Source of the DNA: Trichodelitschia bisporula
Lineage: Eukaryota
DNA length: 64,000 bases
NCBI GenBank assembly: GCA_010356995.1
Contig: ML996688.1
Location: 1,462,579-1,526,578, forward strand
Direction of reading: 5' to 3'
In this document: positions 1,064 to 46,471 of the stretch, piece after piece
Numbering within the stretch: position 1 is the first letter of the stretch
Layout of the letters: each line of letters opens with the position of its first letter
The notes under the pieces: generated by a model
Database searches by the model: none
Seen by the model: the letters and a program-made list of their open reading frames with translations, nothing else
Told to the model about the DNA's origin: nothing
Position numbers and translations under genes: made by a program

Positions 1064-1767
1064 TGTTGTGGTGTTATGTGTGGTTTAGAGGGTGGGGTAC
1101 ATTGCGGTTTGGGGTGGTTTGCGGATGGTGAGGGCGGGTTGGGGGTGGGATTGTGCGAGGATCGAGGTTGCAGGACAGTGCTGTGCTCGTGGCGGAGCGG
1201 ATGAGTTGACGTTCCGCGCCTGGTGGAGAGCTATCGACTTTCGAGGTAAGGTCGTATCACGTGACCGCGCGTATGCAGCGCTGCTGAAATGCAACCGCCT
1301 CGCTTTCGACAACAGCTCGAAGAAAGTGGAGTGGATCATTTCTTAATGGAATTAGTGCATGCACTGGAATCAAGGTGCACTGGAATCAAATCATCATCAG
1401 AAATACTCATGGTTATGTTCGCACATGTATATACATCGCGGCCCCACTCCCAACAGCAGCAGTAGAACAGTGTATAGACACCACGCCTCCGACCACACCA
1501 ACTACAATGCACAGATCCATATCACCACAGCCACCAGGTATCCACAACAGCAAGCTAGGCATGGAACAACGGTCAGACTCCCAACTCCCGAAATGCCACA
1601 CGCTCGCAACAAACAGCGCTATCCGAGCATCGCACCCATCGAAAGCAACACACAAGCTCAACAGCTATGATAAACGCCAGTCCATGAGTCCGCCTATACA
1701 TCGTCAAACAAAGCGTCCAAAGTACATATGTACAGACAGGCATCCAGGGAACCGTCGCAGGTCAGTC

Positions 1768-4707
1768 CTAAAGGATAGATAACAACCGGCCTAAAGCCCG
1801 GTCATCGTCCTCCCCGGCATCACGCATTCCGTCCTCCTGGCCAGCCCCTCCCTCATCCGCACTCTCATCCCAAGCAACTTCCTCCATGAGGTCCCGCGCC
1901 TGTCCCCGGTGTCCACTGGGTGTAGCAGGACCACTCTGCGTCTGCCTCAATGGCACTTCAACGCCCAAATCATCCGATTCCACACTAGCCTCTTCTCCCA
2001 TTCTCTTCCGAAACCTCGGCACCGGACTCGGACTCGGGCTCGGACTAATCGGCACCCCTTTGGCGGGTGTGGGCGGCTGAAACGAAATCGCCGGCATATC
2101 CTCGCCCGAAGCCCGCGCTGGCGATGTCATAAGCAGTGTCGACTCATCATGATCTCCATCCGCCTCATCACACTCCACATCTCCGTCGTCGCCCGAGCTC
2201 ATTCCCCGCACATGGCTCCGAAAGGCACGCCGCCCCTCCGGGCCAGGGCTAGGGCTTGCACTCAGTGTAGGACTAGGCGAGTCACCGCGGCTTTCTGGCA
2301 AAACGGCGGGACTGTCCGGGGGACTGAGCTCGAGGGCGTGACGAAGCAGGCTTTGAGCGTGCTTCGAAATAGCGCGAGGGTCCAGGAGTAGCGGAAGCGG
2401 GAGGTCCGCCTGTGTGGTAGCCACCGAACGTGCAAAAAGTACGAGACCAAGGCACAGCAGCAGCAGAGTTGACTGGACCACGATGACGCGCTTCTGGAAC
2501 ACAAGTTCATCGGCCACGAGTGTAAGGCGCGAGGAGATAGCGGCCATTTCGCGGGCTTGAAGCTCGCGGTGAGATTCCAGCGCCGAGACGGTGAATTGCC
2601 AGAGCTGGTCATACTGCATACGAAAGGAGTGTAGCTCAGCAGTGACGGTGGTGTTGAGAGTACTCAGGAAAGAGCTGGTCTTCGCCGCCTGTCGCTTCTC
2701 AACTTGCGTAAAAGCGTCACGCAAGATGCGAGATTGAGCCTCGATGTACTGCAGGGAGAGTGTGCTGTTGGCCTCGAGGGCTTGAAGGCGTTTATGTACA
2801 GATTTGAAGAAGGATTCCTGGGTCGACGGACTCGCGGCAGGGGGGTTCTGGTGAGTCGATGATGAGGGTGGCTTCGGAAAGTCGGCGATATCCTTTGCTT
2901 CCTTGGTGCTTTTCTGCGCCTGGTCTGGAGTAGGTGTAGACGGGGATGGGGCGTTGTTCGTTACCGAAGACAATTTACGCTCCGAAGACTGACTAGACGG
3001 CGACTTCGAAATAGCCATCGATCCGTTCCCGCTGCTATCTGAGCCTTGTGGCGGTAAAGCCTTGTTCAGATCAGGCTGCGAAGTGCTTTTCGGATACGGA
3101 TGCTCGATGGGAACAGCAGAGATGTCGCTCACACTTGACACCGGCTCAGGTACCTCCTTGGAACTGCTCTCCCGGCTCTGTGAAGCGACTGCCGGGTTGC
3201 TAGAGGTGGTGCTGGCGTTACCTTTCGACTCCTGATTGCTGGCTGCGAGGCCTTGCGTATCTGCGCTTTCGGTGACGTTCCTCGTGGCAGCCTTATCGTC
3301 GGCAGACACACTAGTATTGGCGGTCACGGTCTCAGAAATAGCCTTGGGTGCCTCGATGCTCGGCTCCGCAGTCTCGACGGGCGTTTGAACCTGTGTGCTA
3401 ACCTCGGCATTCTTCTGCACCTCCACAGTCTCGGCCACCTCCTCCGCTTCTTCTTCTCCCCTATTCGTCGCCTCCTCTGCCCGAAATTCTTCCATCATCG
3501 TCGTGCCATGGACACGCAGCAAGCTAACCGGGCAGTAAAATTCGTTCCCATAGTGCGTCAAGAAGTCAATCTTGAGATAGCGTGCCCAGATCAACGGCTC
3601 TACCACCGCAAATGCCTGAATGCCGCGCTCGTTGCGCGCTTCGAAAATCCCTAGATCGCGCCAGCCAGCCTGCCGCGGCGGATAGCGGTCTGACACACTA
3701 ACGCGAAAGGTACGGAACATGGAGCTAAAGAACTCATAGTTGGCCAGGACAACAGTGTCAACCAGAATATCGTCGCACAACTCGATGATGACATGCTTGT
3801 TGTCGGCGGAGCACTCGTTGAGCAGATACGTGTCCTTGTTCTCCACCAGGATAGACGACGTTGACTTGGCCTCATTGTTGGATTTGAGCACAGTCGCCGC
3901 ACAGTCGAACGAGGCGTAGTTGAACCGTTCCTTGCAAGTCTTGCCCGCATCCTTGCGTAGCGTCTTCCCAGGCACAGCAGGTTTGCCATCCGCCGGCGCC
4001 TCCTGCTTCTGTGCGATCGTATTCCAGCGAGTTGGTTCACTCGAGCTGCTCCCACCGAATCCGCCGAAGTCGAGATCAATCTCTGCATCGTCCCCCAAGG
4101 AGTCCAAGGCATTGTTCGGCGGTGCCATACGTCGCGGGCGGTCCGCAGGTCGCGCCTGGCCCACTGCGTCGAGGGACTGCCCCGCCCGCGCGAGGTTCTG
4201 CTTCTTCCATTCCTCGAAGGAGAGAAAGTTGGCTGTATCGAGCGGGGATTCAGGGTCAAGATCGTCGGTCGAGGATGGCGGGGCGTGTTCGGGCGCCGGG
4301 GGTGTGATGACAATGACCGTGGTAGTGTCGCTGGTAGTCACATCGATGGAGAGTATGACAGCGCTATTATCTCCGTACAGTGCTGTAGAAGCCTCTGCCT
4401 CCTCCGCCGCAGAGCCATTGTCCTCTTGTCCATTGCCTGTCCATGTCTTTCTTAAACACTGCTGGGGAAGGCCGTGCGTAATGTAGTTCACCGTCGTGGC
4501 GGGACAGGTCAACGGTGCTCCGTGTCTAAGGGTCGAAGCCGTTGGTAACGTGGTCGCTGACGTCAAAGGAAGCGACGTTGCCGTTATCGCAGTGGTTGTG
4601 CCTGGTACGCCTTCATCGCCGGCCACGGCAGCGCCCCAGTTGAGCAGCAGGAACGTGGCAAGCCCACGCCGGACACGATCGTCGCGCGAGCCCCACATGC
4701 CGCGCAT
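1768..4707 (-). CDS. SLP1: Mid-SUN (Sad1/UNC-like) domain ER membrane protein, Slp1/SUCO family
   Basis: 979-aa intronless ORF with a hydrophobic N-terminus, FLSFEEWKK, RFNYASFDCAATVL, LANYEFFSS, HYGNEFYCPVSLLRVHGTTM, a coiled coil (ESFFKSVHKRLQALEANSTLS) and a TM helix. Confidence 0.92.
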   Translation of the reverse strand: MRGMWGSRDDRVRRGLATFLLLNWGAAVAGDEGVPGTTTAITATSLPLTSATTLPTASTLRHGAPLTCPATTVNYITHGLPQQCLRKTWTGNGQEDNGSAAEEAEASTALYGDNSAVILSIDVTTSDTTTVIVITPPAPEHAPPSSTDDLDPESPLDTANFLSFEEWKKQNLARAGQSLDAVGQARPADRPRRMAPPNNALDSLGDDAEIDLDFGGFGGSSSSEPTRWNTIAQKQEAPADGKPAVPGKTLRKDAGKTCKERFNYASFDCAATVLKSNNEAKSTSSILVENKDTYLLNECSADNKHVIIELCDDILVDTVVLANYEFFSSMFRTFRVSVSDRYPPRQAGWRDLGIFEARNERGIQAFAVVEPLIWARYLKIDFLTHYGNEFYCPVSLLRVHGTTMMEEFRAEEATNRGEEEAEEVAETVEVQKNAEVSTQVQTPVETAEPSIEAPKAISETVTANTSVSADDKAATRNVTESADTQGLAASNQESKGNASTTSSNPAVASQSRESSSKEVPEPVSSVSDISAVPIEHPYPKSTSQPDLNKALPPQGSDSSGNGSMAISKSPSSQSSERKLSSVTNNAPSPSTPTPDQAQKSTKEAKDIADFPKPPSSSTHQNPPAASPSTQESFFKSVHKRLQALEANSTLSLQYIEAQSRILRDAFTQVEKRQAAKTSSFLSTLNTTVTAELHSFRMQYDQLWQFTVSALESHRELQAREMAAISSRLTLVADELVFQKRVIVVQSTLLLLCLGLVLFARSVATTQADLPLPLLLDPRAISKHAQSLLRHALELSPPDSPAVLPESRGDSPSPTLSASPSPGPEGRRAFRSHVRGMSSGDDGDVECDEADGDHDESTLLMTSPARASGEDMPAISFQPPTPAKGVPISPSPSPSPVPRFRKRMGEEASVESDDLGVEVPLRQTQSGPATPSGHRGQARDLMEEVAWDESADEGGAGQEDGMRDAGEDDDRALGRLLSIL

Positions 4708-29282: not shown

Positions 29283-30145
29283 GGCAACAGTGAGGATGAT
29301 GGGACTGTGAGAAAATGTAACGCGAAACGACTTGTACGAGTGATGATTGGGGCATAGGGGGCACTGGGACACGGAGGGAAGATACCATAGAAGGTTCCAG
29401 GCGGTGCATGTCTATATTGTAATCACGTAGGAGTGGGTGGAGTTGGGAGCACGGTTTGTTTTTGCCATTGGCTGGCAAGCGGCGTTGCTTGCTGTGGGCT
29501 CGGACGTTGTACGGGTCATGGTTTGGTGAATTGGGTATGGGCAGGTCTTCGGGCTGGCGAGCGTATTTGCGGTTGAGTCGGTATCCCGCGCTTGGTCAGA
29601 TCTTTTTGCCACATGTAATGGCTGAAAAATCTCAGTCTTTCAGCTTGGCTACAGATGATGCTCAACAAAATATTGGCGTGAAGTTCAACGAAGTTTTTGA
29701 GGCAGGCTTCCCTCGATACAGTACGACATCGTCCAAATCTTGAAATATCTTTTTCGACATGAGGCCATGTGCCTGCCGACAGGACTCCGAGCCGGTATCA
29801 CGGCTCGTTTATGATATGCCTCACCTTACTGGAGCTTGATATAGCGGGCGACTTGCTTTATGGTTAAATTTTGAGCCGCATTCAACCGGATGTGCAACGT
29901 CAGCTGCGGTGGAAGCCGGCCGGGCAAGTTGTCAGGACCTTCGCTTCGGCCCGTCGCGAGCTATTTTCAGCCACCCAGTCATCCCGACACCGACAAATCC
30001 ACGCGGTGTCCATTCGTAGCACCGCTTTGTCACTTTCATTCACTCCGCCACCACGACGCGCGTCGCTGCCTTTATATTCCGTCTCGACTTGCGCGCTGCC
30101 CTCCCTTTGATCTGTAAGTCCCTATCCACAGCGAAATATCTAGCA

Positions 30146-30963
30146 ATGGCTCCTCACAATCGCAAAAGGACGCGCCGCACCCCCGACGCTGACGACGAAG
30201 CCTTCGACACCCCCGACGCACCTGCCTTCGCGCCCGAGCCCGCCATGCCCCGCCCGCCCTCCGTCCCGCTTCTTATAGCTGCAATTGGCAACCCCTCCAC
30301 CGCATACAAGAACACGCTGCACAGTGCCGGGCACACGGTGCTGCGCAATGTGCGGACGCACCTCGCGGCGCCGCCCTTCCGGGCCCATTTAGGCGGGGAG
30401 ATCAGCGCGCCCGGGCCGGAGCGCCGTCTTACGCTGCTGGGTGTGCGTGAGGTCCCGCTCGATGCTGCTAGTGATGATGGGTGGGCTTTTTGGATATCGG
30501 GAACGTTTATGAATGTGAGCGGGCCGGCGGTTAAGCGGGTTTGGGACCGGTGGAGGAGGGAGGGTGGACAGCACGGGGTGAGGAGCAAGTATGGCTGTTT
30601 GGTGGTGGTGCATGATGAGCTTGAGAAGCCGGTGGGGGAGGTTACGGTGAGGGAGGGGGGGAGTAGTGCGAAGTGGGTGTTCTGGGTCTGAGCTTCTTGG
30701 AGATGAGAAGTGAAGGCATTTGAGAAGCGAGTGTTGACGGTTCTAGGGGCCACAACGGCATCAAATCTATACAAGCAGCTCTGGGCTCCAATACGCCCTG
30801 GGTACGCATTGGTGTGGGCATCGGTCGTCCCGCCAGTCGCGAGGCGGATGTAGTCTCCAAGCATGTGCTGCGCAAGATGACCCCCGCAGAGGAGCGGCGC
30901 ATCGAAGCGGCTACGCCAGAGGTCTTGCAACTGTTACGGGATATTGCTGATGGCGTGCGATGA
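30146..30963 (+). CDS. PTH1: Peptidyl-tRNA hydrolase (bacterial-type Pth1)
   Basis: IGNP, TLHSAG, FMNVSG, VVHDEL, then intron 30673-30746, then GHNGIKS and RIGVGIGRP. Stop codon at 30961-30963. Confidence 0.88.
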
Positions 30964-33034
30964 GTAAACACGGCATGGGCTGTACTGCAGGCATGGCGAA
31001 TCCGCGGCGCGGGAACGGAGAGCCGGTTTGGGAAGGTGGTGTTTGAGGTGGATCCGGTTGAGCGGTTCCCGGAGAGGGGATGGCGGCGTGGCTGAGTGGG
31101 GGTAATGGGCAGTGGGCAATGGACAAACGGGCGAATGGTATGCTCGGTCGCCTTGTGGGTGGGATGAGGCTAATTGGCGTACAGCTTGATGGATGGCTGC
31201 GAGACTAGAGTGTGGGCCTGTGTTAAGATCCCCTCATGGTTCATGATCCTATCACTCTGTGCAAAGAACCGGAGGCAGCTTGAAACCATGGCTCGGGCTT
31301 GCATTGCTGGCTTTTGTTCTGGCATGGACGTAGACGTAGACAAAGAGCCTATATAGAAAGAGCAAACACAACCCACATCGAGAGGCTGAATGTCAAGATC
31401 GCCAATCCTATGAATGAAGCAGCCGCTTCTTGGCCTGCATTCTAGTTCTAGGCTTACCATACATGCATTTCAGCTCACCAGCCAGGTTAGCCGCGAACCA
31501 AGAGAAGCTGGGCATGGCCGTCGACGCAAGGACAACTTCCCAAAGAGGTCAATGCTCGGCGTCCTATAGCTGTTGGTGCGTTGTTCTCCGTTCAACGAAG
31601 GATCCGATCGGATATGCGAGCCTGCAGAAGAGAGATGAGAGAGAAGCACATACCTTTCGGCTGCATGGGCGCCGGCGGGCTTCGATCTACTACGAGATCC
31701 CTTCATACTGTGCTCCGAATATGCTGTGCCTAATCCTACTTCCCAGAGTTTGTCTCTTCCTTATGGCCTATGACCTTGGCGGTGGTATCACGGCGGAATC
31801 AAACCAAAGGATCCGGGATCTCGGCTCTGTTGCTACAAGGTTGGACACCTACTTAGCCGCAGGAGCCGTAGCACGGCTACTAGCGTCAGCTCTTACCGCA
31901 GCCATAATGGCATGATGGGAGTACCTTGCGGTGAGCACTGGATGCCTGCATTCCCTTGGAAGGGACGGATGATCGGGGTAAGAAAGCCATTCGCCTTGGA
32001 TGCTCATGTGTTGGCTGGTCTACGATCTTTCACATTTTTCAAAATCAAACTCAGACAAGGCGTAGTTTCTGGACTCGAAGGATCCCATTCCTTACCGGTA
32101 TTCGATGCTTGGTGGAGATCGTCATGGCTGGCAATGAGACAGCGCGGCTGGATGCCTTGATGCCTTGCGGTGGAAAATGGCTCCCGCCATGATCGCCCAG
32201 TAGGAAGGCTGCGCTAGTCCTCTCGGTAAACCCTAATGATTAAGGTTTCGAGCCAGTTCCTCAAGTGCTGAAGATAGCTTCAGCGAATCGAGCCCTGTCT
32301 GGAGCGAGCCGATACTCGTGGAAGCCACCGACAAAACCGCTGTGACATTCCAGGTACATGAGAACTCTCACATTTTCAGTTCGATCGGATGTCTGTGCTA
32401 CCGACGTTGGCCCATGCTTCGTACCGTTGGATTGACACGCATATCAGCCAGTGGCCCAGACTCCAGTAGACTTGAATCCTGTTGTTGGTGGCTGGCAAAC
32501 CCGCCACCCTAATGGTCGGCTATAAACCAGATACGGGCACCCTTGTCGCCCCAAGATTTGGTGATTATGTGAAACAACGGCGGTAGGGATGCTGAAGGAT
32601 GCAAGTGGGGTGTCAGTGACGATTTCGTAGACTCGAAGACAGCGGGTATCTCAGTGTGTCTTATCTGATTGATTCGAATCTTCATATATTTGACCTTTTA
32701 GCACGGCGCGGGGCACGGAATCCACAGACTTACAAGCGGGAACCCTTGATATCAACCACCTCAGTCTAGTAAATGCTCAAAGTCTAGACACCTGCATGCA
32801 CACCTCAGGTGGATGGTCACGTTCATGCATCAGCAGCCATAGTGTAACGACGAAAGAAAGAGCAGCAAACCGATCCGGCAGCTGCAACGAAGCGAGCGGG
32901 AGGTAGCATGCACTAGAAGGCTGAATTTGGGCACGGTAGAGCAGACCGTACCTTTACGAGTTTCCCATTTTAGATCCAACTTGGGCCCCAAAGCTCTGGA
33001 AGCAACCGTCCATCCCTTCTCTCCTTCTCTCAAA

Positions 33035-34129
33035 ATGACCTATGCACTTTCGATTGCATCGCCAAAAATTCCCGTCGGATCGTGGGTCCTCATCACCGGA
33101 GTGAATGGTCTCATCGCAAGTCACATCGCCGACCAGCTGCTCCAGGCGGGTTACAATGTCCGCGGAACGGTCCGAAACCCGGACAAGAATGCCTGGATGA
33201 CCGACTACTTTGCGCAAAAGTACGATAAGGCCAAGTTCGAGCTCGTCCAAGTAGCAGACTTTGCGCTGCCTGGCGCCTTCTACGAGGCTGTCAAAGGTGT
33301 CGCAGGTGTCGTGCACACCACCGCGGCCGTCCACCTGTCATCGACCAGTCCGGACCCGACAATCAAAGACAGGATCACTACTGTTCTGTCAGTGTTCTCC
33401 AGCGCTCTCAAGGAGCCATCTATTAAAAGCATCGTTGTTACGAGCTCTGCTTGGGCCGCTGCCTCCCCCGCGCCGGATGTTGAGTTCACCATCACTGAGG
33501 ACACATGGAATGAACAGGCAGTTGCGGACGCCTGGGCCGTTGGAACACCTCGGTCTCATGGCATGAGCATCTTCATGGCCGCCATGGCGGAGTCTGAGCA
33601 GAGAGTGTGGCAATGGGTGAAGGAAGAAACCCCGCAGTTCACTGTCAATGCCGTACTTCCGGACACGGTCTTTGGCGCGATTCTGGAGCCAAGTCAACAG
33701 GGTGCTCCAAGTACGGCGGGCTTTGTAAAAATGATGTTCGACAGTCAAGGCTTAGACTTCCTGAAGCTCATACAGCCTCAATGGTTTTGCGACGTGCTGG
33801 ATACAGCTCGGCTTCATGTCGCTGCGCTGCTCGTCCCAGATCTTGAGAGCCAACGCATCTTCGCATACGGCGGACAGTGGAATTGGAACGACGTTCTCGC
33901 AATTTTCCGAAAGATATACCCGGATCGCGAGTTTATCGCCGACCTGCCGTTGGGGAAAGACCTCAGCAAGGTACCACCTCGGGAGAAGTCGCTGGCGTTG
34001 CTGCGAACCGCATACGGCCAAACCGAGTGGACAGGGCTTGAGGTTTCAATCAAGGCGAACGTTGCCAGTTTTGGCAACGGCAAGGCGACGGCAGGTGGGG
34101 CTGTGGTGGAAAGTTTGACCGGAAGGTAG
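33035..34129 (+). CDS. Aldehyde reductase II-like NAD(P)-dependent epimerase/dehydratase (extended SDR)
   Basis: Intronless. VLITGVNGLIASHIADQLL, VRGTVR, VVTSS, NAVLP, DVLDTARLHVAAL, NWNDVLAIFRK. Confidence 0.87.
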   Translation: MTYALSIASPKIPVGSWVLITGVNGLIASHIADQLLQAGYNVRGTVRNPDKNAWMTDYFAQKYDKAKFELVQVADFALPGAFYEAVKGVAGVVHTTAAVHLSSTSPDPTIKDRITTVLSVFSSALKEPSIKSIVVTSSAWAAASPAPDVEFTITEDTWNEQAVADAWAVGTPRSHGMSIFMAAMAESEQRVWQWVKEETPQFTVNAVLPDTVFGAILEPSQQGAPSTAGFVKMMFDSQGLDFLKLIQPQWFCDVLDTARLHVAALLVPDLESQRIFAYGGQWNWNDVLAIFRKIYPDREFIADLPLGKDLSKVPPREKSLALLRTAYGQTEWTGLEVSIKANVASFGNGKATAGGAVVESLTGR

Positions 34130-34545
34130 AATTGACCAGAACTGTCGATACTGGTGCGGTATATGCGCTGAGCGGGGTAGCGTGGGGGGGGGAAACCTGC
34201 AGGCTAATGGCTTCTCTTACCGCAAACATCCGAGATTCTGAGAGTGTATCTTCTTCTGATAAGACATCACGATTGACTTGTGCGTGAAAGGTGTTGGTTT
34301 GTTTCTTGCACTTTGGTTCAGCTTGACGCAGGGCCGTGTCAGACAAGTGGTTCCCATTCGGATGGAGCCGCATCGCCGAGTCAGTAAGGTTAGCGGTTTG
34401 ATGCCCAACGATCGAGGCTTTCGCCGCTGTCAATTAAGAAACAGTCTAGCGCCATGACAAGTGCACATAATTTTGTCGCAGAAGATATCAAAAGCGATGC
34501 TTTGCAGCCTTTACAGCCAAAAGTGACAGGTGGCGGCGGGCCAAT

Positions 34546-34565
34546 AGAAGCTTCGAGAATCTTCT
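34546..34565 (+). promoter_or_regulatory. Perfect 4-unit heat shock element (HSE) upstream of SIS1, preceded by CCAAT
   Basis: aGAAgcTTCgaGAAtcTTCt (alternating nGAAn units) about 250 bp upstream of the Hsp40 ATG. CCAAT lies at 34541-34545. Confidence 0.85.
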
Positions 34566-34810
34566 GCGAGGTCGGCCCGCGAACATGACGTACGTAATTG
34601 GCTGAGGACAAGGAAGCTCTAGCGTCACCTTGATCTCGTGAGAGGGGATTGGCAACCCGGCGCCGCCTTTCAATGCCCAATCCACCTCACTCCACCGCTT
34701 TCACTGCTTGGATGCACTCACCGTCCCCCCCCTTAACTTTCAAAGAAAACCCATCTTCATAATCCTCCTGGTACCAGTACCCTACATCTGGAGAACCACA
34801 CCTAACGACA

Positions 34811-36097
34811 ATGGTCGCTGAATCGAAGCTCTACGACCAGCTCGGTGCGCGCCACCCCTCACACACTTCCCCTCCTTCTCCATGCTAACATCACCATGAC
34901 CGCAGGCGTCAAGCCGGATGCTTCCCAAGATGAGATCAAGAAAGCCTATCGCAAGATGGCATTGAAATTCCATCCCGACAAAAACAAGGATAACGCTCAA
35001 GCTTCCGAGAAGTTCAAAGGTAAGTTGTTCACCGTGTGCCCCTCACCCCACGGCAAACACCCCGGTTCACCAGCTGACCACGCCCACCATCAGAGGTATC
35101 GCAGGCCTACGAGATCCTTTCGGACCCGGAGAAGCGTAAGACATACGACCAGTACGGCCTCGAATTCATCCTTCGTGGTGGTGCACCCCCTCCACAAGAT
35201 GCTGGCGGACCGACGCCCAACTACGCTGGCGGCTACCCATTTGGTGGTCCTGGTGGTGGTGGTGGCATGCCTGGCGGGGCGCGCACATTTCATTTCTCAA
35301 CTGGAAATGGTGCTGGTTTCAACTTCTCCGACCCCGAAAGCATTTTCGCAGACTTCTTCCGCAGTTCCGGCGGCGACGACGATATGGGCGGCATGCCAAA
35401 CTTCGGCGGGAGCAACTTCAGATTCCAGTCCATGGGAGGCAAGCCGGGGGGTGCTCGCGGGCGAACCACATCGAGCCGGTTTGACGGAGGGCCGCGGGCT
35501 CCGACACCGGAGGTCACAGTCGTCGAGAAGCCGCTACCGCTCACGCTGGAGGAACTGTACAAGGGCACGACGAAGAAGATGAAGATCAAGCGCAAGAAGT
35601 TCGACAACCAGACGATGAAGCAGATGACGGAAGACCGCATACTCGAAGTTCCGATCAAGCCCGGTCTCAAGGCTGGCAGCAAGATCAAGTTTAAGGATGT
35701 GGGCGATCAAGTGGAAGGTGGAACGCAAGACCTACACTTTCTCGTGGAGGAGGTATGCTAGCGCAGCTTGTGTGTCACGATTGATTGCTGACGTACGATA
35801 TAGAAACCGCATCCGCTCTTCAAGCGTGAAGGCGATGACATCCGCCACACGATCCCCCTAGATCTCAAGGAAGCTTTGACCGGTTGGAGCCGCACCGTCC
35901 AGACCATTGATGGAAAGCAACTACAGGTTCGACACGGTGGTCCCACTCAACCAACCTGGACGGAACGTTTCCCCAATCTCGGCATGCCGAAGAGCAAGAA
36001 GCCTGGTGAGCGAGGCGACTTCATTGTTGGCGTTAATATCACCTTCCCGTACTCGCTCACTCAGCAACAGAAGGAGCTGCTGAAGGACGTGTTGTAG
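34811..36097 (+). CDS. SIS1: Type II Hsp40/DnaJ co-chaperone (Sis1/Psi1)
   Basis: [13 protein letters not shown]-domain HPD (KFHPDKN), a G/F-rich linker, and a DnaJ C-terminal domain without a zinc finger. Introns near 34845-34905, 35020-35093 and 35753-35803. Confidence 0.92.
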
Positions 36098-36722
36098 ATC
36101 TGATGGGCTTGCCGAGGGTCAGCAATGGTTCTTGAGGTTGATGTCCACGGCTGCTGCGCTTGTGCTGTTATAGAGAGTTGACGAATTGATGGGCGACGTC
36201 GGAACAGGCTTTGGCGTTTGGGTGTTTACAAATAGCCAGGGCATAAGGCTGAGATGAATTTATGTTACTCCAACTGCATCTGTTACATTTTGTAGATGAC
36301 TGCGCCCTTGTTACATTGCATCTATTCCTTTCCTCGTCACTTCAGTTAATAGTCAGGATATCCTGGCTTTAGCACGTAAAGATGGCGTAGACCGGTGCGC
36401 AAAAGCTTCCTGGAACGCTCAAAACACGGTGAGCTCCCAATAAGCCGTTCTAGGAGCTTATTGCACCCCATTTGAAACAGAATCGGCAAAGGACTTAAGT
36501 GGACCAGATATGCCGTGGCATCACTGGAACCGGATCACTTCGGAGAAGAGATGGCCCGCATGCTCCATGGTTTCGGCGCCAAGTAACTCCGGGCTGCGCC
36601 GCGCGCCCAGTACTTTAGGCACCGCAGCCAACTCCAAACATTTTTCAAGCAACGTATCGTGAAGGCTACCCAAGCTTTCAACCTCAGCAATCGTAGTGCC
36701 AGACTCGATCAAAGGCGTCAAG

Positions 36723-37972
36723 ATGGATATATTCTGGTCCTGGCCACCTATCACAAGGTACGGAAAGCTCTCTTCATGACATTACAAATGGCGCCTAACT
36801 GATCATAGAACTCTTCTAGCCGGTATCGTGGTGACATCCATAAGTGTCCACCTCGGGCCCCTTAACCCTCTCTATGTCATCTTCTTGAAGGATCAAATCT
36901 TCTGCCTGCCTCCTAGAATCCCGGAGATATGGAGGCTTGTAATGCCGTTCCTAATGTCAAGTCCCGGGCTCGGCTTGATCATGGATCCATACCTGCGTAC
37001 GCAAACCCCACAATCTGGCAACTCTGTGGCCGCATTGTGCAGGGTGAAGCTCACAACGAGCAGTGTACTCCTACAGCAGTGTCTTGGAGCGTGACTCCCC
37101 GCGCTTTACTGAGCTCGGCTCGTACTTCGTGTACCTGACATTTGTCTCGACCGTCATTGTGGTAGGCCCTGCCCTCATCCCACTTGAGATCCTTTCACAA
37201 GTCCACTCCCCATTGCACACATTGTATTTCGTAGCTCTAGAACCTCGAATTATCTGCCCGACCAGCCTCATTCTTCTAGCTGGAGCGGTTCCTGGAATCG
37301 AGGGAAAGCACCTTCGCGCTGTGTGCGGGCCCCGTCATTCGCAAAAAACTAAAGGGGTTCGTACGCAGCGTGAGCATAGGTGGGACGGCCATTTGAGAAA
37401 ACCGCTAGGATACATACAATTTCGTTGCGGTGGTGTTGGCTCCCTACATCCCTAGCACAATACCATTCAATTTTTTTCCATATTTCTTGCCCCACCTCAT
37501 ACGCTCCGCCCTCCTGTCTCCGGAAGCACTTGCTAACGGCTCCAAGGCCCTCTGCGGCTATTACCTCGAAGGCTACGTCTTCCTACAACCTCTCATCCTC
37601 GCCTTCGCCTACACCTTCTCGCAGGAGAACCCCAACGCCAATGTGACAATGTGGTTCCTCACCTTTCCCGCCAAGTTCCTGCCCCTCGCCCTCCTCTTCC
37701 TGACCTTCGTCATGGCCGGTCCCGGACCGGCAAAGCAGCAGCTCACCGGCCTCATCGCCGCCCACCTGTACGACTTCCTAATCCGCATTTGGCCCATGTT
37801 TGGCGGCGGCCGCAATGTCCTCGCTACGCCTATGTTCGTCAAGCGCTGGTTTGGCGCGAATCGCGGCGAGCAGCGCCGTGCGTATGGCACGGCGGTTTTT
37901 GCGCGCGAGCAGGTGCCGCGGAGTGAGCCGCAATTTGGGCAGCGAGGTCCGGGGCGCAGACTGGGCGATTGA
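36723..37972 (+). CDS. Derlin (Der1/Dfm1-like rhomboid pseudoprotease, ERAD), 4 exons
   Basis: WPPITRT, PEIWRL, DPY, LTGLIAAHLYDFL and a C-terminal SHP-box-like RGPGRRLG. Introns 36758-36808, 36997-37063 and 37162-37546. Confidence 0.88.
37243..37418 (+). ncRNA. Putative intron-encoded structured ncRNA (H/ACA snoRNA-like)
   Basis: Hairpin 37243-37303, ANANNA box AAAGCA at 37305-37310, a 20-bp stem 37314-37333/37354-37373 with 5 G-U pairs, and ACA at 37412 and 37416, all within a 385-nt derlin intron. Confidence 0.55.
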
Positions 37973-38415
37973 GCGGCTTTTGTTGGGTTGGAGTGGTTGC
38001 GGGCTTGGACTAGGATGGGCATGTGTAGTATTAGGCGGGTTCGTTTCGATGTCGAGTAACATAGGCGAGCGATGTTTGTTGTCTGATGCATATTAGGAGG
38101 CCGAGAATGGCACGGTTCCTGAATCCGGGATATGAGCCACGCATGCATTTCAGTGCGTGATAGCAGCCCGAAGCGGTGTTCCGGGGAAATTTTCATTAAC
38201 CTTTTGATGGATTGACTCCATAGCCTATAAACGCCCTCATCCACGAAGATAGAACCCCGTATGAACATTCCAAACCAGCGCCCGGGAAGATAGACCATAA
38301 TGCTACAAGAATGAGACTACAAAGAAGACCGAGGCGGTAAGACACATCGGCAACGTAGGCGCGGTCATGCCTTTTGGCATTTGTCACCCACGCCGCCTGT
38401 CCCCGTCACTCCCAT

Positions 38416-40014
38416 CTAATCAGAGTCATCTCCCTTCTTGGCCTTCTTTTCTTTCTTCTCTTTCTTCTTTCGCTTGCGCTCGGCCTTCTCCTCAGGCGTC
38501 TCGTCCGCGTGCTTCCGCTTTTTCTCCTCCGTATCGTCATCATCCTTATGCTTCTTCGGCGTAGCCTCCTTCATCTCGATGTCGCCAGCGGCGTCAGGCT
38601 TCGGCGCCCCAATGGCCAAGGAGGCCGTTGTGGCGCCGTTGCTCGCCGGCTGCTCCTGGTCCTTCATAATGACCTTCCAGTCCGCCGGGGTCTTCTCGTT
38701 GAACTTGCCGTATTTCTAGGGACAATTAGCATCAACTGAGACGAAATAAAGGAAACTCACGTCAAGCTTCCCTTCAGTAATCATCTGCTTCTTGCGCTGA
38801 GCATGATCGCCCAAGTTCCAGCGGCGCGGGTACAAGTCGCGCTCCATGATGACGCGCTTGACCTTCGCAGCCTTGCCATGGTCGCAGGACATCAGGTCCG
38901 CGGAGCTCATGCAGGCGTAGCCAATGGCCACGGCCTCGCCCTTGGTCGTAATAATGACGATCTCTTCGTGCAGCTTGATGTCCTTCTCGTAGCGCAGGAC
39001 ACCAGGCAGCGTGAGCGCTGCACCGTAGCACACAGCGTTAACAGCGGAATCCTTAATCACGATGCGCTTATAGCCAACGAGCAAGCTCTCGAGCGGCTGG
39101 ATCACGGCCCGCAGGTACGCCTCGTCGAGCTGGTTGTCCATGACCCACTGCGCATCGAGCACATCGTGCAGCGTAACCATGTTATCGGTTTCACACATAG
39201 CACCACTGCGCACGCGGCGCAGCTCCTGCATATGCGCACCCACGCCCACCAACAGGCCGAGATGCACACATAGCGTCCGAATATATGTGCCAGCCTCGCA
39301 GCTAGCCCAGAAAACGCCCAGCTTGCGCTCGTTGTCAAACTCAATGAGCTTGATCTCGTGAATTGTACGGATACGGAGCTGACGCTTGACAGCCGAGATG
39401 AGCGGGGGCCGTTGGAAGAGGGCGCCCGTCAGCGTCTCGAGCGCGCGTGCGAACTGTGCCTGTCCACCGGGGAGGGAGTCGTGGAAGCGAATGACGCAGA
39501 CGTATTCCTTGCCGGCACCTTGCTGGGCCTTGACGAGACGAGTGGCACGGTCGATGGTGACGATCAGGTTGCCCGTGACCTTGGGATCGAGAGTGCCGCT
39601 GTGACCGGTCTTTTCGACTCTGAAATATACGTGAGCAGGGGCAGTGGGGTAGTTGGCACACTCCGTACCTGAGGATGCGCTTGATCCACGATACCACCTC
39701 GTGACTAGAGGGGTTGGAAGGCTTATCCAGGTTTATGACACCATAGCTGACGTAGGACTTGAGATCGCGTTTCAACGGCTCAGAGCCCGCAGGGATCGGA
39801 GTGTAATGGCCCTGGCGAACGCACACTATTCATTGATCAGTATATGTGCGTGGTACGTGAGAAGCGCAATTGGCAACAGAGACAATGCCCATGCGAAACG
39901 GAGGAAGCTCAGCGTACACTCATTGTAGTTCTTAAGAAGCAGCGGCCAATCGCTCGTGTCCACCTGCTTTGTAGTGGCTTCGGGACGAACGTAGTATTGA
40001 AGTTCGGATGACAT
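38416..40014 (-). CDS. CBF5: H/ACA snoRNP pseudouridine synthase Cbf5/dyskerin, 4 exons
   Basis: [42 protein letters not shown], a PUA domain and a KKE-rich tail. Introns 39826-39917, 39620-39668 and 38716-38760. Confidence 0.96.
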
Positions 40015-40734
40015 TTCGAATGGTCTTGCTCTCTTTGCACCGAGAGGATTGTGTGATGGCAATAAGAGCCTGGAGCGCGCAGGATCTTCTTAGATCAACG
40101 GACGCTTTGGAAAACTGTGCGTCGTGTTGAAACCCTTCTGTGGTGTCGCTCTTCGCGTCTAATTTGCTTCGACGGCGAAAGATTTTAAGTGAAGGAGAGG
40201 TCTTGGGGGGCGGAGAGAAAGTCGGAGTGGTGCCAAAATTTCGAGGCGGAGAAAATCATTGGCGCACGATCGCATGGCGGCCCAAGCTCCTCATTCGCCA
40301 TCACGTGCATATGCTTCAGTGGCATCTTCCACGTGATAACCGAGTTGCTCAACGGTTCGGTACCGAACTATCTGCGTTGCTCATGCCGGACTGACTGAAG
40401 CATCTTTGGTACGCTTGCCCCATCACTGGGCTGATCTAGGACGTATCGGGGGTAGTAGTCTACCGGTACAACGACAGCTTCACAGCCTTGCGATGCTCCT
40501 CAAGACATCACGCATGCGCAAATAACCACATTCTATGTGCTGTGAGGCGAAAATCCTTTGCCGCTTATGCAGAATACAGCTGCCTACAAGTGATCAATGA
40601 TGCCGAAAATCAAACTGTGAAAACGCCATGACCCTGTATCCTTTAGTCCGCCCGATGCAGTGACTGATGCCGCCCGAACGCCGCGCTGTATGAGATCGCA
40701 ACCGATTAGAAAACAAGCGTCGCCGAGCCTAGAT

Positions 40735-41549
40735 TTACTCCTCGTCCTCATCATCCTCGTCATCCTCCTCCTGCAGAACCTCGCTGTCCGAGCCGCAGTC
40801 CATGCCCTCTAGGTCTTCGTCGGAGTCAAAGTCGGCATCGGAACCGAAATCAACACTGCCCGCATCAGAGTCCGCCCAGTCCATGGAATCCAGGTTGTAA
40901 TCTTCCTCTTTAGCGGCCTTGAAAGCGTCCTCCGATTTCGGCATAACGAAGCCCTCCGGAATGTCCTTCTTCGAGGTCTCCATGTCCTTTTGAACCATTG
41001 TCTTGTACTTCTCCGGGTTTTGGCGGAGCATGACACCAGCATCGACGTTCGCAGGCGACGAGACTTCGGCATCGTCCAGGAGAGACAGCACAGAGAGAAG
41101 AACGGTCTCAACCCGCTGCGCGGGATTCCAGCGCTCGGCTGCCAGCTCACCGGACATCTCGTCGTCGCCAGGCGTATGCAAAATCGAAATGCAAAGACGG
41201 CCATCAGGGTAGATGTTGGGATGGTAGAGCGGACGGTTGAACTTGAAGTCTAGGAGGATTAGCCCCTTTATCGCACCCAGTGTTTGGTTTACTTACCCGG
41301 CGGGCTATACGGGTAGGTCTTGGGGAAGGTCATCTTCGCCTTGAAGTAGCCACCGTAGTAGAGGCTCGTCTCATTCATGACGATGAGAGCGACGGACCAC
41401 TGGAAGATGTTCTCCTTGATGAGCTGTTGCGCTTCACGTCAGTTTCTCCTCGAGTCCGTTGGAGCGACTCGGCTCAAACGTACCTCGACGTGAGTCCAAG
41501 GCTCCTTCTGGAGAGCCTTGAACTCGTTCATGAGAATTCGCTCGGCCAT
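40735..41549 (-). CDS. CDC34: Ubiquitin-conjugating enzyme E2 with acidic loop and acidic tail (Cdc34/Ubc3-like)
   Basis: MAERILMNEFKAL; YYGGYFKA; HPNIYPDGRLCISILHTPGDDEMSGE..ERWNP; D/E-rich C-terminus; two introns. Confidence 0.82.
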
Positions 41550-42517
41550 GATGATAACGCTGCGATGATGGTATGCGGAAGGAGTGGCGTAAAGCGACGG
41601 TCAGAGCAGATGGTCTGACAAGCAAGTGAAGTCTTCAAGTGGATGACTGATAATAGCAGATGCGGGCGAAAGACGACAAACAACAAGGTTCAAATATAAG
41701 CCACGAGCGTAGGGCGCGCAGGGATTTATGTTGCAGCACGCGAGCGAAGAAGGAAGGCGAGCGTCTTGGAAGTGTGAGCGGTCCACGGAGTTCCGCCATC
41801 TATAACCGACTGCGACAGCAGGCAGGTGGCGCAAAGTAGCCACTTAAAAGTGGCTCATAAGTGGCGCCGATTGCAGCAACTTAAGACGCTGACTGGTTTG
41901 TCTTGGTCGATACCTTCAATAATCGAAGCCCTGCCGGCTCCGGCTCACACCGGGGCGGACGAGTACTGGCTACCGGAAGCGATATGCATCAAGGAAAGGG
42001 CCTAGACCGAGCGGGTTATGGCAACGCTGCTCGCGGAATGGACTGAGAGTCTCAGTGCTTCCTTCGGCCATTCACCATTGCTTTCGTCCTAACATAGTGA
42101 ATGATATTGCAATCTTTGTACTTGAGGAGGCCGCATATTGTGTTGCGAGATGCCTATCTCGTCCAGTAGGCACGCACTTTGTCGCCATGCAGGGCGGCCG
42201 AGATTGGCCGCTGATATGCACGCCATCGTTTTGCTTGTCATGCGGATGAGTTGCTCATCAACGGTGACCTCGATTGGACGAGTAGGTCTAACTCGCTGTG
42301 AGCGCCAATTCTGGTGGGGGTGAGAATGATACCGAAAGGCAGGCGCCTCAAGATTCGAAGTACGCTCGTATGTACCGTAAACGGCAGAGAAGTCCACGAT
42401 AAGACATTTATACATTCCGACGTTCGGTGTCTAATTCAGCTAAAGGGTCTAGCAAAGTATGTCATATCTACCACTGACGAACACAGCCTATGCCAGATCC
42501 GGTTTGCTATGTACACA

Positions 42518-44134
42518 TCACCGTCTTCCCCTTACGGCAGCCTTTCCGCCCTTATTTCGGTCCCGGTCCTCCTTTCGCGGACCCTTCTCAACACCCAACT
42601 CTCTGGCCTTTTCGCGAGGATCAATCACCACCAGTTCATCCTGATTCTTCCTTCGCCATTCCAGGTCTTTGCCTAACCGGTCCTTGTCGAAGTTTAGCCT
42701 GTGCGCCATCCATGCAGGACCAAAGTCCTCATTATCTTCGTCTCCTCCGGCAGCCTTGTCCCACTTGGTACATGACTGGCAGTTGACAATGAAGTGCAGG
42801 TCGCAAAGCGCCTCCTCTTCACCATCCACTTCGGCGGCGGCGTGTGGTTCATCTGTTGGTGCTACAGGCTCGCTACCATTCTCCGCTAGAGGCTCCTCTG
42901 CTGGAATGGTCTCCAGCTTTTCCTTGAAAGCCTTGAACATGTCCAATGTCTGACGCTTCTCCTTTGAGCTGACCGCTCCTCGCTTCCTCCCACGTGTAGA
43001 AGTCTCGGGAATCAACGCCTCCAGTGCAGTCTTCTTGCTCGCAGCAGGGGCAGCCACTGCTAGGCCGGTGCGGCGCATAGACGCTTTGAGTTCGGCAATT
43101 TGAGCATTGGTTCGAGAGACCAGGTCTGATACCTTCGATGCTTCTGGAGACTCCGCACTGGATGCATCGGAATCGGAACCAGAATCAGATGGTGATGGCG
43201 ACCGTTGTTTTGGCTTGGGTGCGGAAGATAGCGATCTCCTCTTAGACTCGCGCGCAGGCGATGGTGCCTTTTGCTTAGGCTTGCGGGTCGGAGGCGGAGG
43301 CGACTGCGACTTCGGTTCTGTGGGAGAAGGACGCACAGAGAGTGTTGAGCGAGCTTCGAGGACAGGCCTCGCGTCTCTGGGAGGTGCTTTGGGCATCGGC
43401 GGATTGTTGAGCACATCTCCGTCCTCAAACCCAGCGCTGACGAGTTTGGGATTGAACTTCGGCTTCTTCATAGTAGGCGCCACCTCTTCATCCCCATCGT
43501 CTCCTGCGAAGCTCAGAAGCGCCTTGCCCGCTTTCCGCTTCGGCTTCTTAACCTCCTTCTTCTCCGGAGCCGTCGGCTGTGCCCTTTGCATCCGCTTGAC
43601 CATGTCGTCAAATGGATTCACTAAGATCTCAGTTCCTGTGATCTTGTACGGGTAAAGAGGCCTGTCGCCGCCTTCCTGCGCCAGCTCGCCCTCGGCCATC
43701 TTCATGAGGTTGTAGATCGTGTCGCCCTCAATGCGCCCAAACATCGTGTTCTTCCCAATCAACTCCGGGGTTTCGCCCAACGTGAAGAAGAACTGGCTCC
43801 CATTATCATCCTTCTTCCCGCTGTTCGCCATGCCCAGTAACCCGCGCCGATTGAACTTCAGCCGGCTGTGGAACTCGTCGGCAAACGGTTCGCCATCGTA
43901 GCTGCTTTCGCCGCCGGAGCCCGTCCCCGTAGGATCACCGCCTTGCAGCACGAAGCCAGGCACCAGGCGATGGAATATGGTGCCATCGTAGTAACCGTCG
44001 AGGCAGAGCTGCAGGAAGTTGCGCGACGTGACGGGGGTCTGCTTGGCGAAGAGTTCGATGGAGAGGTCGCCGCCGGTGGTTTGAAGGAGGACTTTGGCCG
44101 TCGGTTGCGGCTCGAGGTTATATTTTGTACTCAT
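42518..44134 (-). CDS. CWC27: Spliceosomal cyclophilin-type PPIase Cwc27
   Basis: MSTKYNLEPQPTAKV, NFLQLCLDGYY, FHSRLKFNRRGLLGMAN, TIYN, NPFDD; C-terminal LCDLHFIVNCQSC and VVIDPR. Confidence 0.95.
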   Translation of the reverse strand: MSTKYNLEPQPTAKVLLQTTGGDLSIELFAKQTPVTSRNFLQLCLDGYYDGTIFHRLVPGFVLQGGDPTGTGSGGESSYDGEPFADEFHSRLKFNRRGLLGMANSGKKDDNGSQFFFTLGETPELIGKNTMFGRIEGDTIYNLMKMAEGELAQEGGDRPLYPYKITGTEILVNPFDDMVKRMQRAQPTAPEKKEVKKPKRKAGKALLSFAGDDGDEEVAPTMKKPKFNPKLVSAGFEDGDVLNNPPMPKAPPRDARPVLEARSTLSVRPSPTEPKSQSPPPPTRKPKQKAPSPARESKRRSLSSAPKPKQRSPSPSDSGSDSDASSAESPEASKVSDLVSRTNAQIAELKASMRRTGLAVAAPAASKKTALEALIPETSTRGRKRGAVSSKEKRQTLDMFKAFKEKLETIPAEEPLAENGSEPVAPTDEPHAAAEVDGEEEALCDLHFIVNCQSCTKWDKAAGGDEDNEDFGPAWMAHRLNFDKDRLGKDLEWRRKNQDELVVIDPREKARELGVEKGPRKEDRDRNKGGKAAVRGRR

Positions 44135-44559
44135 GGCGTCGGCATATGGATGGCAGCCTCGTGTGATGTTGTGGATGCTGGAAAGTCGAGGCTATGGTGC
44201 GGAGATGCAAGGGACGCGGATGCACGTTTTCGCGCTGGCACGAGTTGTGGAGTGTTGAGATCAGCCAGGCGCGACGTCACAAGCTTGGGGCAGCTGAGTC
44301 CCTGGTCAAAAAGGTACAAAAAGGCATCACGCTCCGGTTAGTCGATGCTACATCTTCAAATTCCTTTCCTATCCCCCCCTAGAAAGTGTGAATGCGATGT
44401 TTCCCTGTAAACCGGTCCTTTAGAAACGGGAATTTACATCAGACCTCTCCGTGGGAAGCAAATCTTAGAGCCGGGCACTGGCCATAAATTCAACACCCTC
44501 TACTTCTCAACCAAAATCTTCACACCCAGCTCTGCGAAAGCATAGCAAGTACAGTCGCC

Positions 44560-46471
44560 ATGTTACCTGGCATGGACTCCCGTATGTCTTTGATCCTGTG
44601 AAGATCGTTAATTGACCCAGCTAAACTGATTTAGCGTTCATATATGTTGCCAACAAGCTTGGTGCATCCTCAGATGAGCGTAAGGACACGATGTCTCCCC
44701 GATTTGGACAGCCTGACACCGAGCAGTTAAATTGATATTCTCGTTTTTGCTGTCCTACCCGCTCGCAGCAGTTCTGAAGAGGATTCCGGACAGCAAACCC
44801 TGGCAGAAGAATATCTTCATCGTTGGGTATGACGAGTCTGGCTCCCTATTTAGAATCTCACTCATAGTACAGCGTCTCCCTCTTCTATCTTGTTGGCTTG
44901 TTTGACCTGTGGGACGGGCTTTGGACATTATTCGTAAGCTCAGCCGGGTCATACGCCATTGCCTACTTCATCGATGGCTCGTTCATGCCATGGGTCGGCT
45001 TCGCCTTCATGATGGGCCACATGGCTGTCAATCACATTTATCGCCAGCTCGCAGCCAACCCTTCAGGTGTAGATATTACCGGTACGTGCTCCATTATTTC
45101 GGGCTGTTCAAGCTGACTCCGTATAGGGGCTCAAATGGTCCTGGTCATGAAGGTCCGTTACCGTAATGAAAGCAAAAAGAGGCAGCTGACTGACCCTTCT
45201 AGCTCACCGCATTCTGCTGGAACGTCCATGATGGCCGGCTACCGGCAAACGAACTTTCGGACTTTCAAAAAGAGCGTGCTATCAGGCAGCTCCCGGATCT
45301 GCTTGATTACGCGGGCTATGTGTTATTCTTCCCAAGCCTGTTCGCTGGTCCGGCCTTTGACTACGTCGACTACCGGCAGTACATCAGTACTTCGATGTTC
45401 AAGCTCCCCCCCGGTGTCGACCCCTCCAAGGCCCCTCCTACCCGCAAGAAGCGCAAGATCCCCCGCAGCGGCCGTCCGGCATCCTGGAAAGCCGCCCAAG
45501 GTCTCTTCTGGATCGTCCTCTTCCTGCAATTCTCCGGGCGCTATAACCCGGAGAAGCTGCTCTCAGACAGGTTCCTAGAATACGGCTTCGTACGACGCGT
45601 CGGCTTCCTCTGGGCGCTCGGCTTCACGACCCGCACGAAGTACTACGGCGTCTGGGCGCTAACCGAGGGCGCATGTATCCTCTCGGGCATCGGCTACGCC
45701 GGCATCGACGCGAAGACCGGCCGCGCGAAATGGGATAGGCTCGTGAACGTCATCCCGCAGGAAATCGAGCTCGCGCAGAACACGCGAGCGTTCCTCGGGT
45801 CCTGGAACATCAACACTAACTCCTGGCTGCGCAACTACATGTACCTGCGCGTGACGCCCAAGGGCAAAAAGCCCGGCTTCCGCGCCACGTTGGCGACTTT
45901 TGTGACTAGCGCCTTTTGGCATGGCTTTTACCCCGGGTACTACCTGGCCTTCGTGCTGGCCAGTTTTCTGCAAACAATTGCGAAGCACGGGCGCCGCCTT
46001 TTCCGCCCTTTCTTCCTCACGCCCGACAGCACGGCGCCCACCCAGTACAAGATCTACTACGACGTGTTCACGTGGGTCGTCACGCAGGCTGCGTTCGCCT
46101 TCACCGTCCAACCGTTCATACTCCTCACCCTCGCCGCCACGGTTAAGTGCTGGGCGCGCGTGTACTTCTACGGCATCGTAGGCGTGATCGCGTGCTTTGC
46201 GTTCTTGAATTCACCGGCTAAGCTCGCCGTGGTTAAGCGCCTGAAGATGCGCAATCAGCCTGGGGGAATTCAGCGCGCGGCGAGTGCGGAGGTTCTGCCG
46301 GGTGGCACCCTTGGGCTGCCGGATGATCCGGAGAAGGAGGTCGAGGATATGGTGGTTGAGGTTAGGGCGGAGATTGAGCGGATGAAGCGTGAGGGTCGCG
46401 GGTCGATTGATGTGCCTGATGTGAGGGCGATGGTGCAGGAGAGGTTGAGGAGGAGGGGGAAGTTGGTGTAG
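44560..46471 (+). CDS. ALE1: MBOAT lysophospholipid acyltransferase Ale1, multi-exon
   Basis: DELKLIFSFLLSYP, DITGAQMVLVMKL, FFPSLFAGP, WNINTNSWLR and SAFWHGFYPGYY (catalytic His). Confidence 0.92.

Follow-up and report, generated by a model that had tools for sequence, protein, structure and literature searches.

A predicted box H/ACA snoRNA of the Nc ACA9/snR43 family in an oversized derlin intron of Trichodelitschia bisporula

Introduction

The yeast box H/ACA small nucleolar RNA (snoRNA) snR43 is encoded by an independent gene. It is listed as the guide for two pseudouridines (Psi) of ribosomal RNA (rRNA), 5.8S-Psi73 and 25S-Psi966 (Sloan et al. 2016; PMC8307265). For Neurospora crassa, the available text of Liu et al. 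(2009, PMC2780460) describes Nc ACA9 (EU780988), an RNA of 201 nucleotides (nt) from chromosome V that is annotated as 'Intron' and 'Orphan' and was found as complementary DNA (cDNA) and by northern blot. Here we describe a locus of Trichodelitschia bisporula that lies in a 64,000-nt stretch of DNA, called the window below (GenBank assembly GCA_010356995.1, contig ML996688.1, positions 1,462,579 to 1,526,578 of the forward strand). An element at positions 37241-37451 of the window, inside an intron of a Der1-like (derlin) gene, is very probably an intron-encoded box H/ACA snoRNA, the counterpart of Nc ACA9, of the family HACA_9 and of snR43, that guides pseudouridines of the large subunit (LSU) and 5.8S rRNAs. 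The analysis shows that the intron is spliced and that the element is locally conserved, has the fold and boxes of its class and carries a pocket complementary to a stand-in ribosomal DNA (rDNA).

Further members of the family have been reported. In the available text of Canzler et al. (2018, PMC5824354) the S. pombe RNA is entered as 'AJ632018 (HACA_9)', in a family for which a target is annotated, and it is stated that 'AJ632018 matches snR43'. Vertebrate SNORA9/ACA9 is intron-encoded; a chicken table names it as functional homologue of snR43 at the LSU site and gives the snR33 site for its 3' pocket. The RNA of the window is likened to the S. pombe RNA by description, and to yeast snR43 by the two predicted targets that they share, 25S-Psi966 and 5.8S-Psi73, and by the literature, not by sequence. 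It extends by one member a family, Nc ACA9/snR43, that was itself already described. Among the 10 of 976 papers listed in a search of the literature, none dealt with a derlin host intron for a fungal snoRNA, and no claim is made that such a case is unpublished.

Anatomy of the predicted RNA

The RNA has three hairpins. Its parts are listed with their positions in the window; the four sequences are the window and three related loci (L001, L002 and L003).

37241..37451, + strand: predicted mature H/ACA snoRNA of about 211 nt, its ends placed after the cDNA ends of Nc ACA9
37243..37303, + strand: hairpin 1, with the lower stem CCUCGA/UCGAGG, a pseudouridylation pocket and the upper stem CCG-CCAGC/GCUGG-CGG, from domain folds
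37249..37257, + strand: 5' strand of pocket 1, AUUAUCUGC, complementary to GCAG(A) on the 3' side of the target U
37289..37297, + strand: 3' strand of pocket 1, UUCCUGGAA, complementary to UCAGGA (LSU) or GAA (5.8S) on the 5' side of the target U
37305..37310, + strand: H box AAAGCA (ANANNA), in a single-stranded hinge, 16 nt past the upper stem of hairpin 1
37310..37381, + strand: extra internal hairpin 2, with a core stem of 20 base pairs (bp), 37314-37333 with 37354-37373, five G-U pairs and a 20-nt loop
37382..37444, + strand: hairpin 3, with the lower stem GGGA-cg-GCCA/UGGC-UCCC and a variable upper stem, from folds and compensatory pairs
37392-37401 and 37431-37436, + strand: pocket 3, with the strands UUUGAGAAAA and UGGUGU, identical in the four sequences
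37446..37448, + strand: ACA box, 1 nt past hairpin 3 and 14-15 nt past its upper stem

The block is folded in the order hairpin 1, H-box hinge, extra hairpin 2, hairpin 3 and U-ACA. From the top of the pocket to the box, 16 nt were counted between hairpin 1 and the H box and 14-15 nt between hairpin 3 and the ACA, which is within the H/ACA spacing of 14-16 nt. The 3' end past the ACA is seen only in the cDNA of Nc ACA9, which ends with ACAUCU; in an H/ACA RNA the ACA is expected 3 nt from the 3' end. This fold was the unconstrained minimum free energy (MFE) structure in L001 and L002. In L003 its energy was no more than 0.2 kcal/mol above the MFE, and in the window no more than 2.6 kcal/mol above it.

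A preliminary description of the window, made from its letters, had reported hairpin 1, the box AAAGCA and a 20-bp stem that includes five G-U pairs, and all of them are present in the sequence. It had also stated that this stem works on the sense strand only. In a comparison with 100 shuffles for each strand, the sense strand folded with a z score of -2.53 (1/100 shuffles as good) and the antisense strand with a z score of +0.69 (76/100), in agreement with this statement. The terminal ACA had been placed at 37412-37414 and has to be moved: this triplet belongs to the apical loop of hairpin 3, which varies, and the relatives lack it, and the conserved ACA is the one at 37446-37448.

Conservation of the block in related loci

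The related loci L001-L003 lie on metagenome contigs and were found by a scan with derlin exon 4, with an amino-acid identity of 50-58%. They are close to one another, and together with the window they make four sequences from two lineages. A long intron (359 nt as delimited) was present at the same phase-0 position in all three relatives, where it follows ...FVALVIL, matching ...FVSTVIV of the window. The sole block of the intron that aligned was 37237-37461, which showed an identity to L003 of 0.60-0.84 per 25-nt bin. In the flanks of the intron, the identity to L003 was 0.24 in three bins (37187-37236 and 37487-37511) and 0.40-0.56 in the others, rising near the splice and branch sites.

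The pocket strands of hairpins 1 and 3 were identical or nearly so in the four sequences, and the upper stems differ yet still pair. Invariant in 4/4 sequences were AUCUGC in the 5' strand of pocket 1, the 3' strand UUCCUGGAA, the motif UCAUUCGCA in the apical loop of hairpin 2 (37334-37353) and the ACA-bearing end CCCUACAU. The position of the H box, which reads AGAUUA in L003, and the ACA were kept in the four sequences, and the stems and loops were variable. Two-sided compensatory changes were observed once in the lower stem of hairpin 1, three times in the upper stem of hairpin 3 and once in hairpin 2, whose stem was retained in the relatives with nine further one-sided changes. For hairpin 1 the sequences were realigned alone; MAFFT had moved its lower stem by one column, so RNAalifold misfolded it on the full alignment. 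In a control with slid partners, the 15 pairs of hairpin 1 were paired in 93% of the cells, compared with 18-48% when the partners were slid.

Comparison with Nc ACA9 and its family

The sequence of Nc ACA9, as printed in Additional file 2 of Liu et al., was compared with the window by eye, and all likenesses to Nc ACA9 given here are of this kind. In the shared blocks, 17/21, 23/28 and 11/14 positions were counted as identical, and the elements follow in the same order. The matches are ..CCUCG-/AUAUCUGCCCG, then GCGGUUCCUGGAA-CGAGG followed by AGAUUA, the loop AUCAUUCGCAAAA, CAUGGUGGGA and the end ..CCCUACAUCU. Like the RNA of the window, Nc ACA9 is intron-encoded, has three hairpins, is of similar length (201 versus about 211 nt) and carries its H box, AGAUUA as in L003, after ..CGAGG-N. 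It shares AUCUGC and UUCCUGGAA of pocket 1, UCAUUCGCA and UCAUUCGCAAAA in the loop of hairpin 2, CAU-GGUGGGA and the end CCCUACAU.

The two RNAs differ in the 5' strand of pocket 1, which is AAUAUCUGC in Nc ACA9 and AUUAUCUGC in the window, where the first three letters are different, whereas the 3' strand is identical. The upper stems and the arms of hairpin 2 also differ in sequence, with the pairing kept. In hairpin 1, the distal part of the upper stem reads AUAGU/ACUAU in Nc ACA9 and CCAGC/GCUGG in the window, and the sixth pair of the lower stem is A-U in the window, U-A in L001-L003 and G-C in Nc ACA9. The 3' pocket of Nc ACA9 is UUUGGAUGA / GUGUGGUUUUUU, in contrast to UUUGAGAAAA / UGGUGU in the window. 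The preliminary description had proposed an H/ACA-like RNA within the derlin intron, and this proposal is upheld by the conservation in three relatives, the full H/ACA layout and the match to Nc ACA9.

The connection to snR43 leads through the family numbers. In the available text of Canzler et al. (2018, PMC5824354), HACA_2 corresponds to Nc_HACA_2, HACA_3 to snR3 and hence to Nc ACA3, and HACA_6 to snR8 and hence to Nc ACA6. The low HACA numbers follow the Neurospora numbering, and HACA_9 should therefore include Nc ACA9. The S. pombe RNA AJ632018 belongs to this same family HACA_9 and is matched to snR43 there. Vertebrate ACA9 is shorter, with about 130 nt, and is without the extra hairpin, whereas the RNA of the window has about 211 nt and contains hairpin 2.

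Predicted targets of pocket 1

The complementarity of pocket 1 was scanned on L053, a stand-in rDNA that was found with the ITS3 primer and comes from fungal DNA contaminating a bacterial assembly. Rfam recognised in it the full small subunit (SSU) rRNA, the 5.8S rRNA and positions 1-2215 of the LSU rRNA. All 963 internal U residues of L053 were taken as possible targets, with the 5' flank of the target set against the 3' strand of the pocket and the 3' flank against the 5' strand. Rank 1 of 963 was LSU U945 in CUCAGGA[UA]GCAG with 6+4 bp, and rank 2 was 5.8S U72 in GUGAA[UU]GCAGA with 3+5 bp. The same two ranks were obtained with the pocket of the window and with that of L003. When the pocket was shuffled, U945 was among the top two sites in 6/2000 shuffles, and both sites together were found in 0/2000.

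LSU U945 corresponds to position 966 of yeast. An offset of -21 puts 6/6 yeast Psi (776, 960, 966, 986, 990 and 1004) on a U, and 9/11 overall, whereas the other offsets from -26 to -16 put at most 3/6 of them on a U. In L053, position 944 is the last of the LR5 primer site, whose yeast coordinates are presumed. Counting from AAACUUUC gives 5.8S U72 the number 73. The preliminary description had proposed that the pocket of hairpin 1 pairs at the 5.8S Psi73 site of snR43, and this site was recovered at rank 2; the stronger target is the LSU site, with 6+4 compared with 3+5 bp. One pocket can serve both snR43 sites because both share GA-UN-GCAG. The whole UUCCUGGAA strand is conserved because the LSU pairing uses UCCUGG.

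From these findings the following pathway is proposed. Once the derlin pre-mRNA is spliced, intron 3 would be debranched and trimmed by exonucleases as far as the bound Cbf5-Nop10-Gar1-Nhp2 proteins, which would free the snoRNA. The pocket AUUAUCUGC / UUCCUGGAA would then pair with CUCAGGA[UA]GCAG of the LSU, the equivalent of yeast 25S-Psi966, and the same pocket with GUGAA[UU]GCAGA of the 5.8S rRNA, the equivalent of yeast 5.8S-Psi73. In both targets the bracketed U would sit 16 nt from the H box for isomerisation by Cbf5. This reading would rely on CAGGAUAGCAG and GAAUUGCAGA in the organism's own rRNA. For T. bisporula itself we infer that the RNA accumulates stably, binds the proteins, brings about both modifications and has about the ends given above.

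The chief value of the assignment is in annotation, as it accounts for an oversized and positionally conserved derlin intron. For two pseudouridines of rRNA it supplies a guide RNA that was missed by the Rfam models in this organism, and it shows that one pocket is able to serve both published snR43 sites. It would also be a clean case of a snoRNA that holds an intron in place across lineages whose host proteins share only about half of their residues.

The loci found with the ITS3 primer (L004-L062) are eukaryotic, mostly fungal-looking rDNA filed under bacterial genomes or metagenome-assembled genomes, apparently as contaminants. One of them, L006, is chimeric and joins 5.8S-ITS2 to unrelated DNA.

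Host gene, intron and transcripts

The host gene and its parts were delimited as follows.

36723..37972, + strand: Der1-like (derlin) host gene, from splice joints, Pfam DER1 and the tblastn collinearity with the relatives
about 36723-36755, 36807-36996, 37064-37161 and 37547-37972, + strand: derlin exons, from joints in RNA contigs
37162..37546, + strand: derlin intron 3, 385 nt, GT..AG, phase 0, joint found in X3 and X4

X3 and X4 are RNA-derived contigs from two runs of one sample with an unstated library type; the runs were taken to hold RNA because the contigs carry GT..AG and CT..AC splice joints. In the derlin gene, the GT..AG joints skip 51 nt (36755>36807), 67 nt (36996>37064) and 385 nt (37160/1>37546/7) in X3 and X4. 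The shorter side of the contig with the 385-nt joint has 28 letters, which is under the joint threshold of 31 letters. The reading joined across intron 3 is collinear with the derlin of the relatives in tblastn, and exon 4 matches Pfam DER1 (PF04511) with an E value of 4.2e-15 and 56.6 bits, compared with a cut-off of 26.6. Five other introns were seen in the RNA contigs, with lengths of 45, 49, 51, 67 and 92 nt, so intron 3 is four to eight times longer. That the intron is real, spliced and oversized, as had been described before, was thereby confirmed.

The intron was covered by two contigs, 37133-37575 and 37133-37526, with a depth of 41 and 22, compared with 675-3820 for the exon contigs. 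These were taken as unspliced pre-mRNA because both exon junctions are bridged.

In the relatives L001-L003, an extra short intron was observed within the counterpart of window exon 4, just after ...SYMFLQ (about 3934-3996 in L003).

Evaluation of the assignment and alternative explanations

Several observations weigh against the assignment as an H/ACA guide of the snR43 family. A covariance search with Rfam gave 0 matches, both at the gathering score over the whole window and at E<=10 over 36900-37800, possibly owing to the taxa that are represented in the Rfam models. The likeness to Nc ACA9 was obtained by eye and not with an alignment tool, and the link between HACA_9 and Nc ACA9 is drawn from the family numbering in the available text of Canzler et al. 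The H box is replaced by AGAUUG in L001 (3749-3754) and L002 (858-863), where the last position departs from ANANNA. Of the conservation and covariation that the preliminary description had called for in orthologous introns, the first was found in 3/3 relatives; the covariation statistics are weak with four sequences from two lineages, and hairpin 1 was matched by 130/500 shuffles. In the X3 and X4 contigs there was no discrete RNA of about 210 nt, where the coverage of the intron is pre-mRNA and uninformative on small RNA.

The remaining points concern the targets. The scan was made on the stand-in rDNA, not on that of the organism, and it covered the LSU in positions 1-2215. The score of pocket 1 was ordinary, as a score of at least 9 was reached somewhere in 585/2000 shuffles, and because the score itself is common among shuffles, the support rests on which sites rank first. 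Pocket 3 (UUUGAGAAAA / UGGUGU) had no canonical target in the SSU, the 5.8S and LSU 1-2215 of L053, and its best lines were weak or G-U-rich.

This last result, together with the modest pairing of pocket 1, would fit a snoRNA relic, decaying or inactive, whose processing continues but which no longer guides a modification. Both pockets are, however, identical across lineages in which derlin exon 4 has diverged to the extent given above and the intron flanks are unalignable. The top two sites of pocket 1 are moreover the two known snR43 sites. We consider a relic to be very unlikely.

Another explanation is a cis-acting structured element of the intron that tunes the splicing or retention of derlin, without a stable trans-acting RNA. 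The structure of the sense strand and the unspliced contigs, at roughly 1-3% of the depth of the exon contigs, would agree with it. On the other side, the block has the full H/ACA layout with both boxes and well-spaced pockets, and it matches a snoRNA that was shown by cDNA and northern blot in N. crassa. Its most conserved parts are the unpaired pocket strands, which a purely structural element does not need, and this makes a cis element highly improbable.

The 20-bp hairpin, a perfect stem of the sense strand in the window, could in principle be a precursor of Dicer-processed small RNAs (microRNA-like). The stem contains bulges or mismatches in the relatives and in Nc ACA9, it is set inside a conserved H/ACA layout, and the loop is conserved and not the arms, so we give this explanation hardly any weight. 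The preliminary description had also suggested a processing snoRNA like snR30/U17, in which GGUUCCUG and AAACC would stand for the m1/m2 motifs of the 3' hairpin, but these are only loosely alike. This reading can practically be dismissed, since GGUUCCUG belongs to pocket 1 as its 3' strand, AAACC-GCU is not conserved and reads AAAGCCUUAC in L001-L003, the AGC/GCU stem is in no conserved fold, the N. crassa counterpart of snR30 is another RNA, Nc_HACA_12, in the available text of Canzler et al. (2018, PMC5824354), and no Rfam match was obtained.

Pocket 3 and the loop of hairpin 2

The strands of pocket 3 are kept across both lineages, yet they differ in Nc ACA9. The 5' strand is complementary over 8 bp to UUCUCAAA of the LSU, in the region of yeast 1041-1048, which adjoins the Psi1042 site. 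At the position that would be the canonical target of pocket 3 on UUCUCAAA, a C was found in 5/5 Pezizomycotina-like rDNAs, and a U in L008 only. In vertebrate ACA9 the 3' pocket is assigned to the snR33 site, whereas the 3' pocket of the window faces the neighbouring UUCUCAAA in a non-canonical register. snR33, the guide of yeast Psi1042, was reported as absent from Pezizomycotina in the available text of Canzler et al. (2018, PMC5824354). The loop of hairpin 2 showed a run of 9 bp to UGCGAAUGG of the 18S rRNA, which is at chance level, as 232/500 shuffles reached at least 9 bp.

It is conceivable, and in our view doubtful, that pocket 3 and the loop UCAUUCGCA of hairpin 2 carry a lineage-specific function that has no counterpart in yeast snR43, for example the docking on UUCUCAAA at the base of helix 38. 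If so, the docking RNA would either stand in for the missing guide, in a register that is not canonical, or be a chaperone without modification.

The CBF5 neighbour and the flanks

Next to the derlin gene lies a convergent gene.

38716..40050 (upper limit approximate), - strand: CBF5/dyskerin-type pseudouridine synthase, with Pfam TruB_N, TruB_C_2 and PUA

The CBF5 gene has three CT..AC joints in the RNA contigs, which skip 45, 49 and 92 nt. The preliminary description had pointed to this gene for the H/ACA catalytic subunit as a neighbour of the intron RNA. The identity of the neighbour was borne out by its three domains, and the adjacency as something meaningful was not: in tblastx with window positions 30001-46000, CBF5 was not beside derlin within about 4 kb on either side in L001 and L003, and the adjacency looks incidental for this reason. 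The same comparison with L001-L003 gave little beyond derlin and no match in the CBF5 interval; the exception was a single short piece, standing alone at about 33270-33341, that was matched in L001 and L002.

One RNA contig (X3 record 5 and X4 record 8) was unbroken across the 743-nt spacer 37973-38715 and connects derlin exon 4 with the spliced convergent CBF5 gene. The 3' untranslated regions of derlin and CBF5 therefore abut or overlap. Farther out, we take the open reading frame at about 34806-36100 (+ strand) to be a J-domain (DnaJ-type) protein and that at 40735-41292 (- strand) to be a ubiquitin-conjugating enzyme, both presumed from their motifs.

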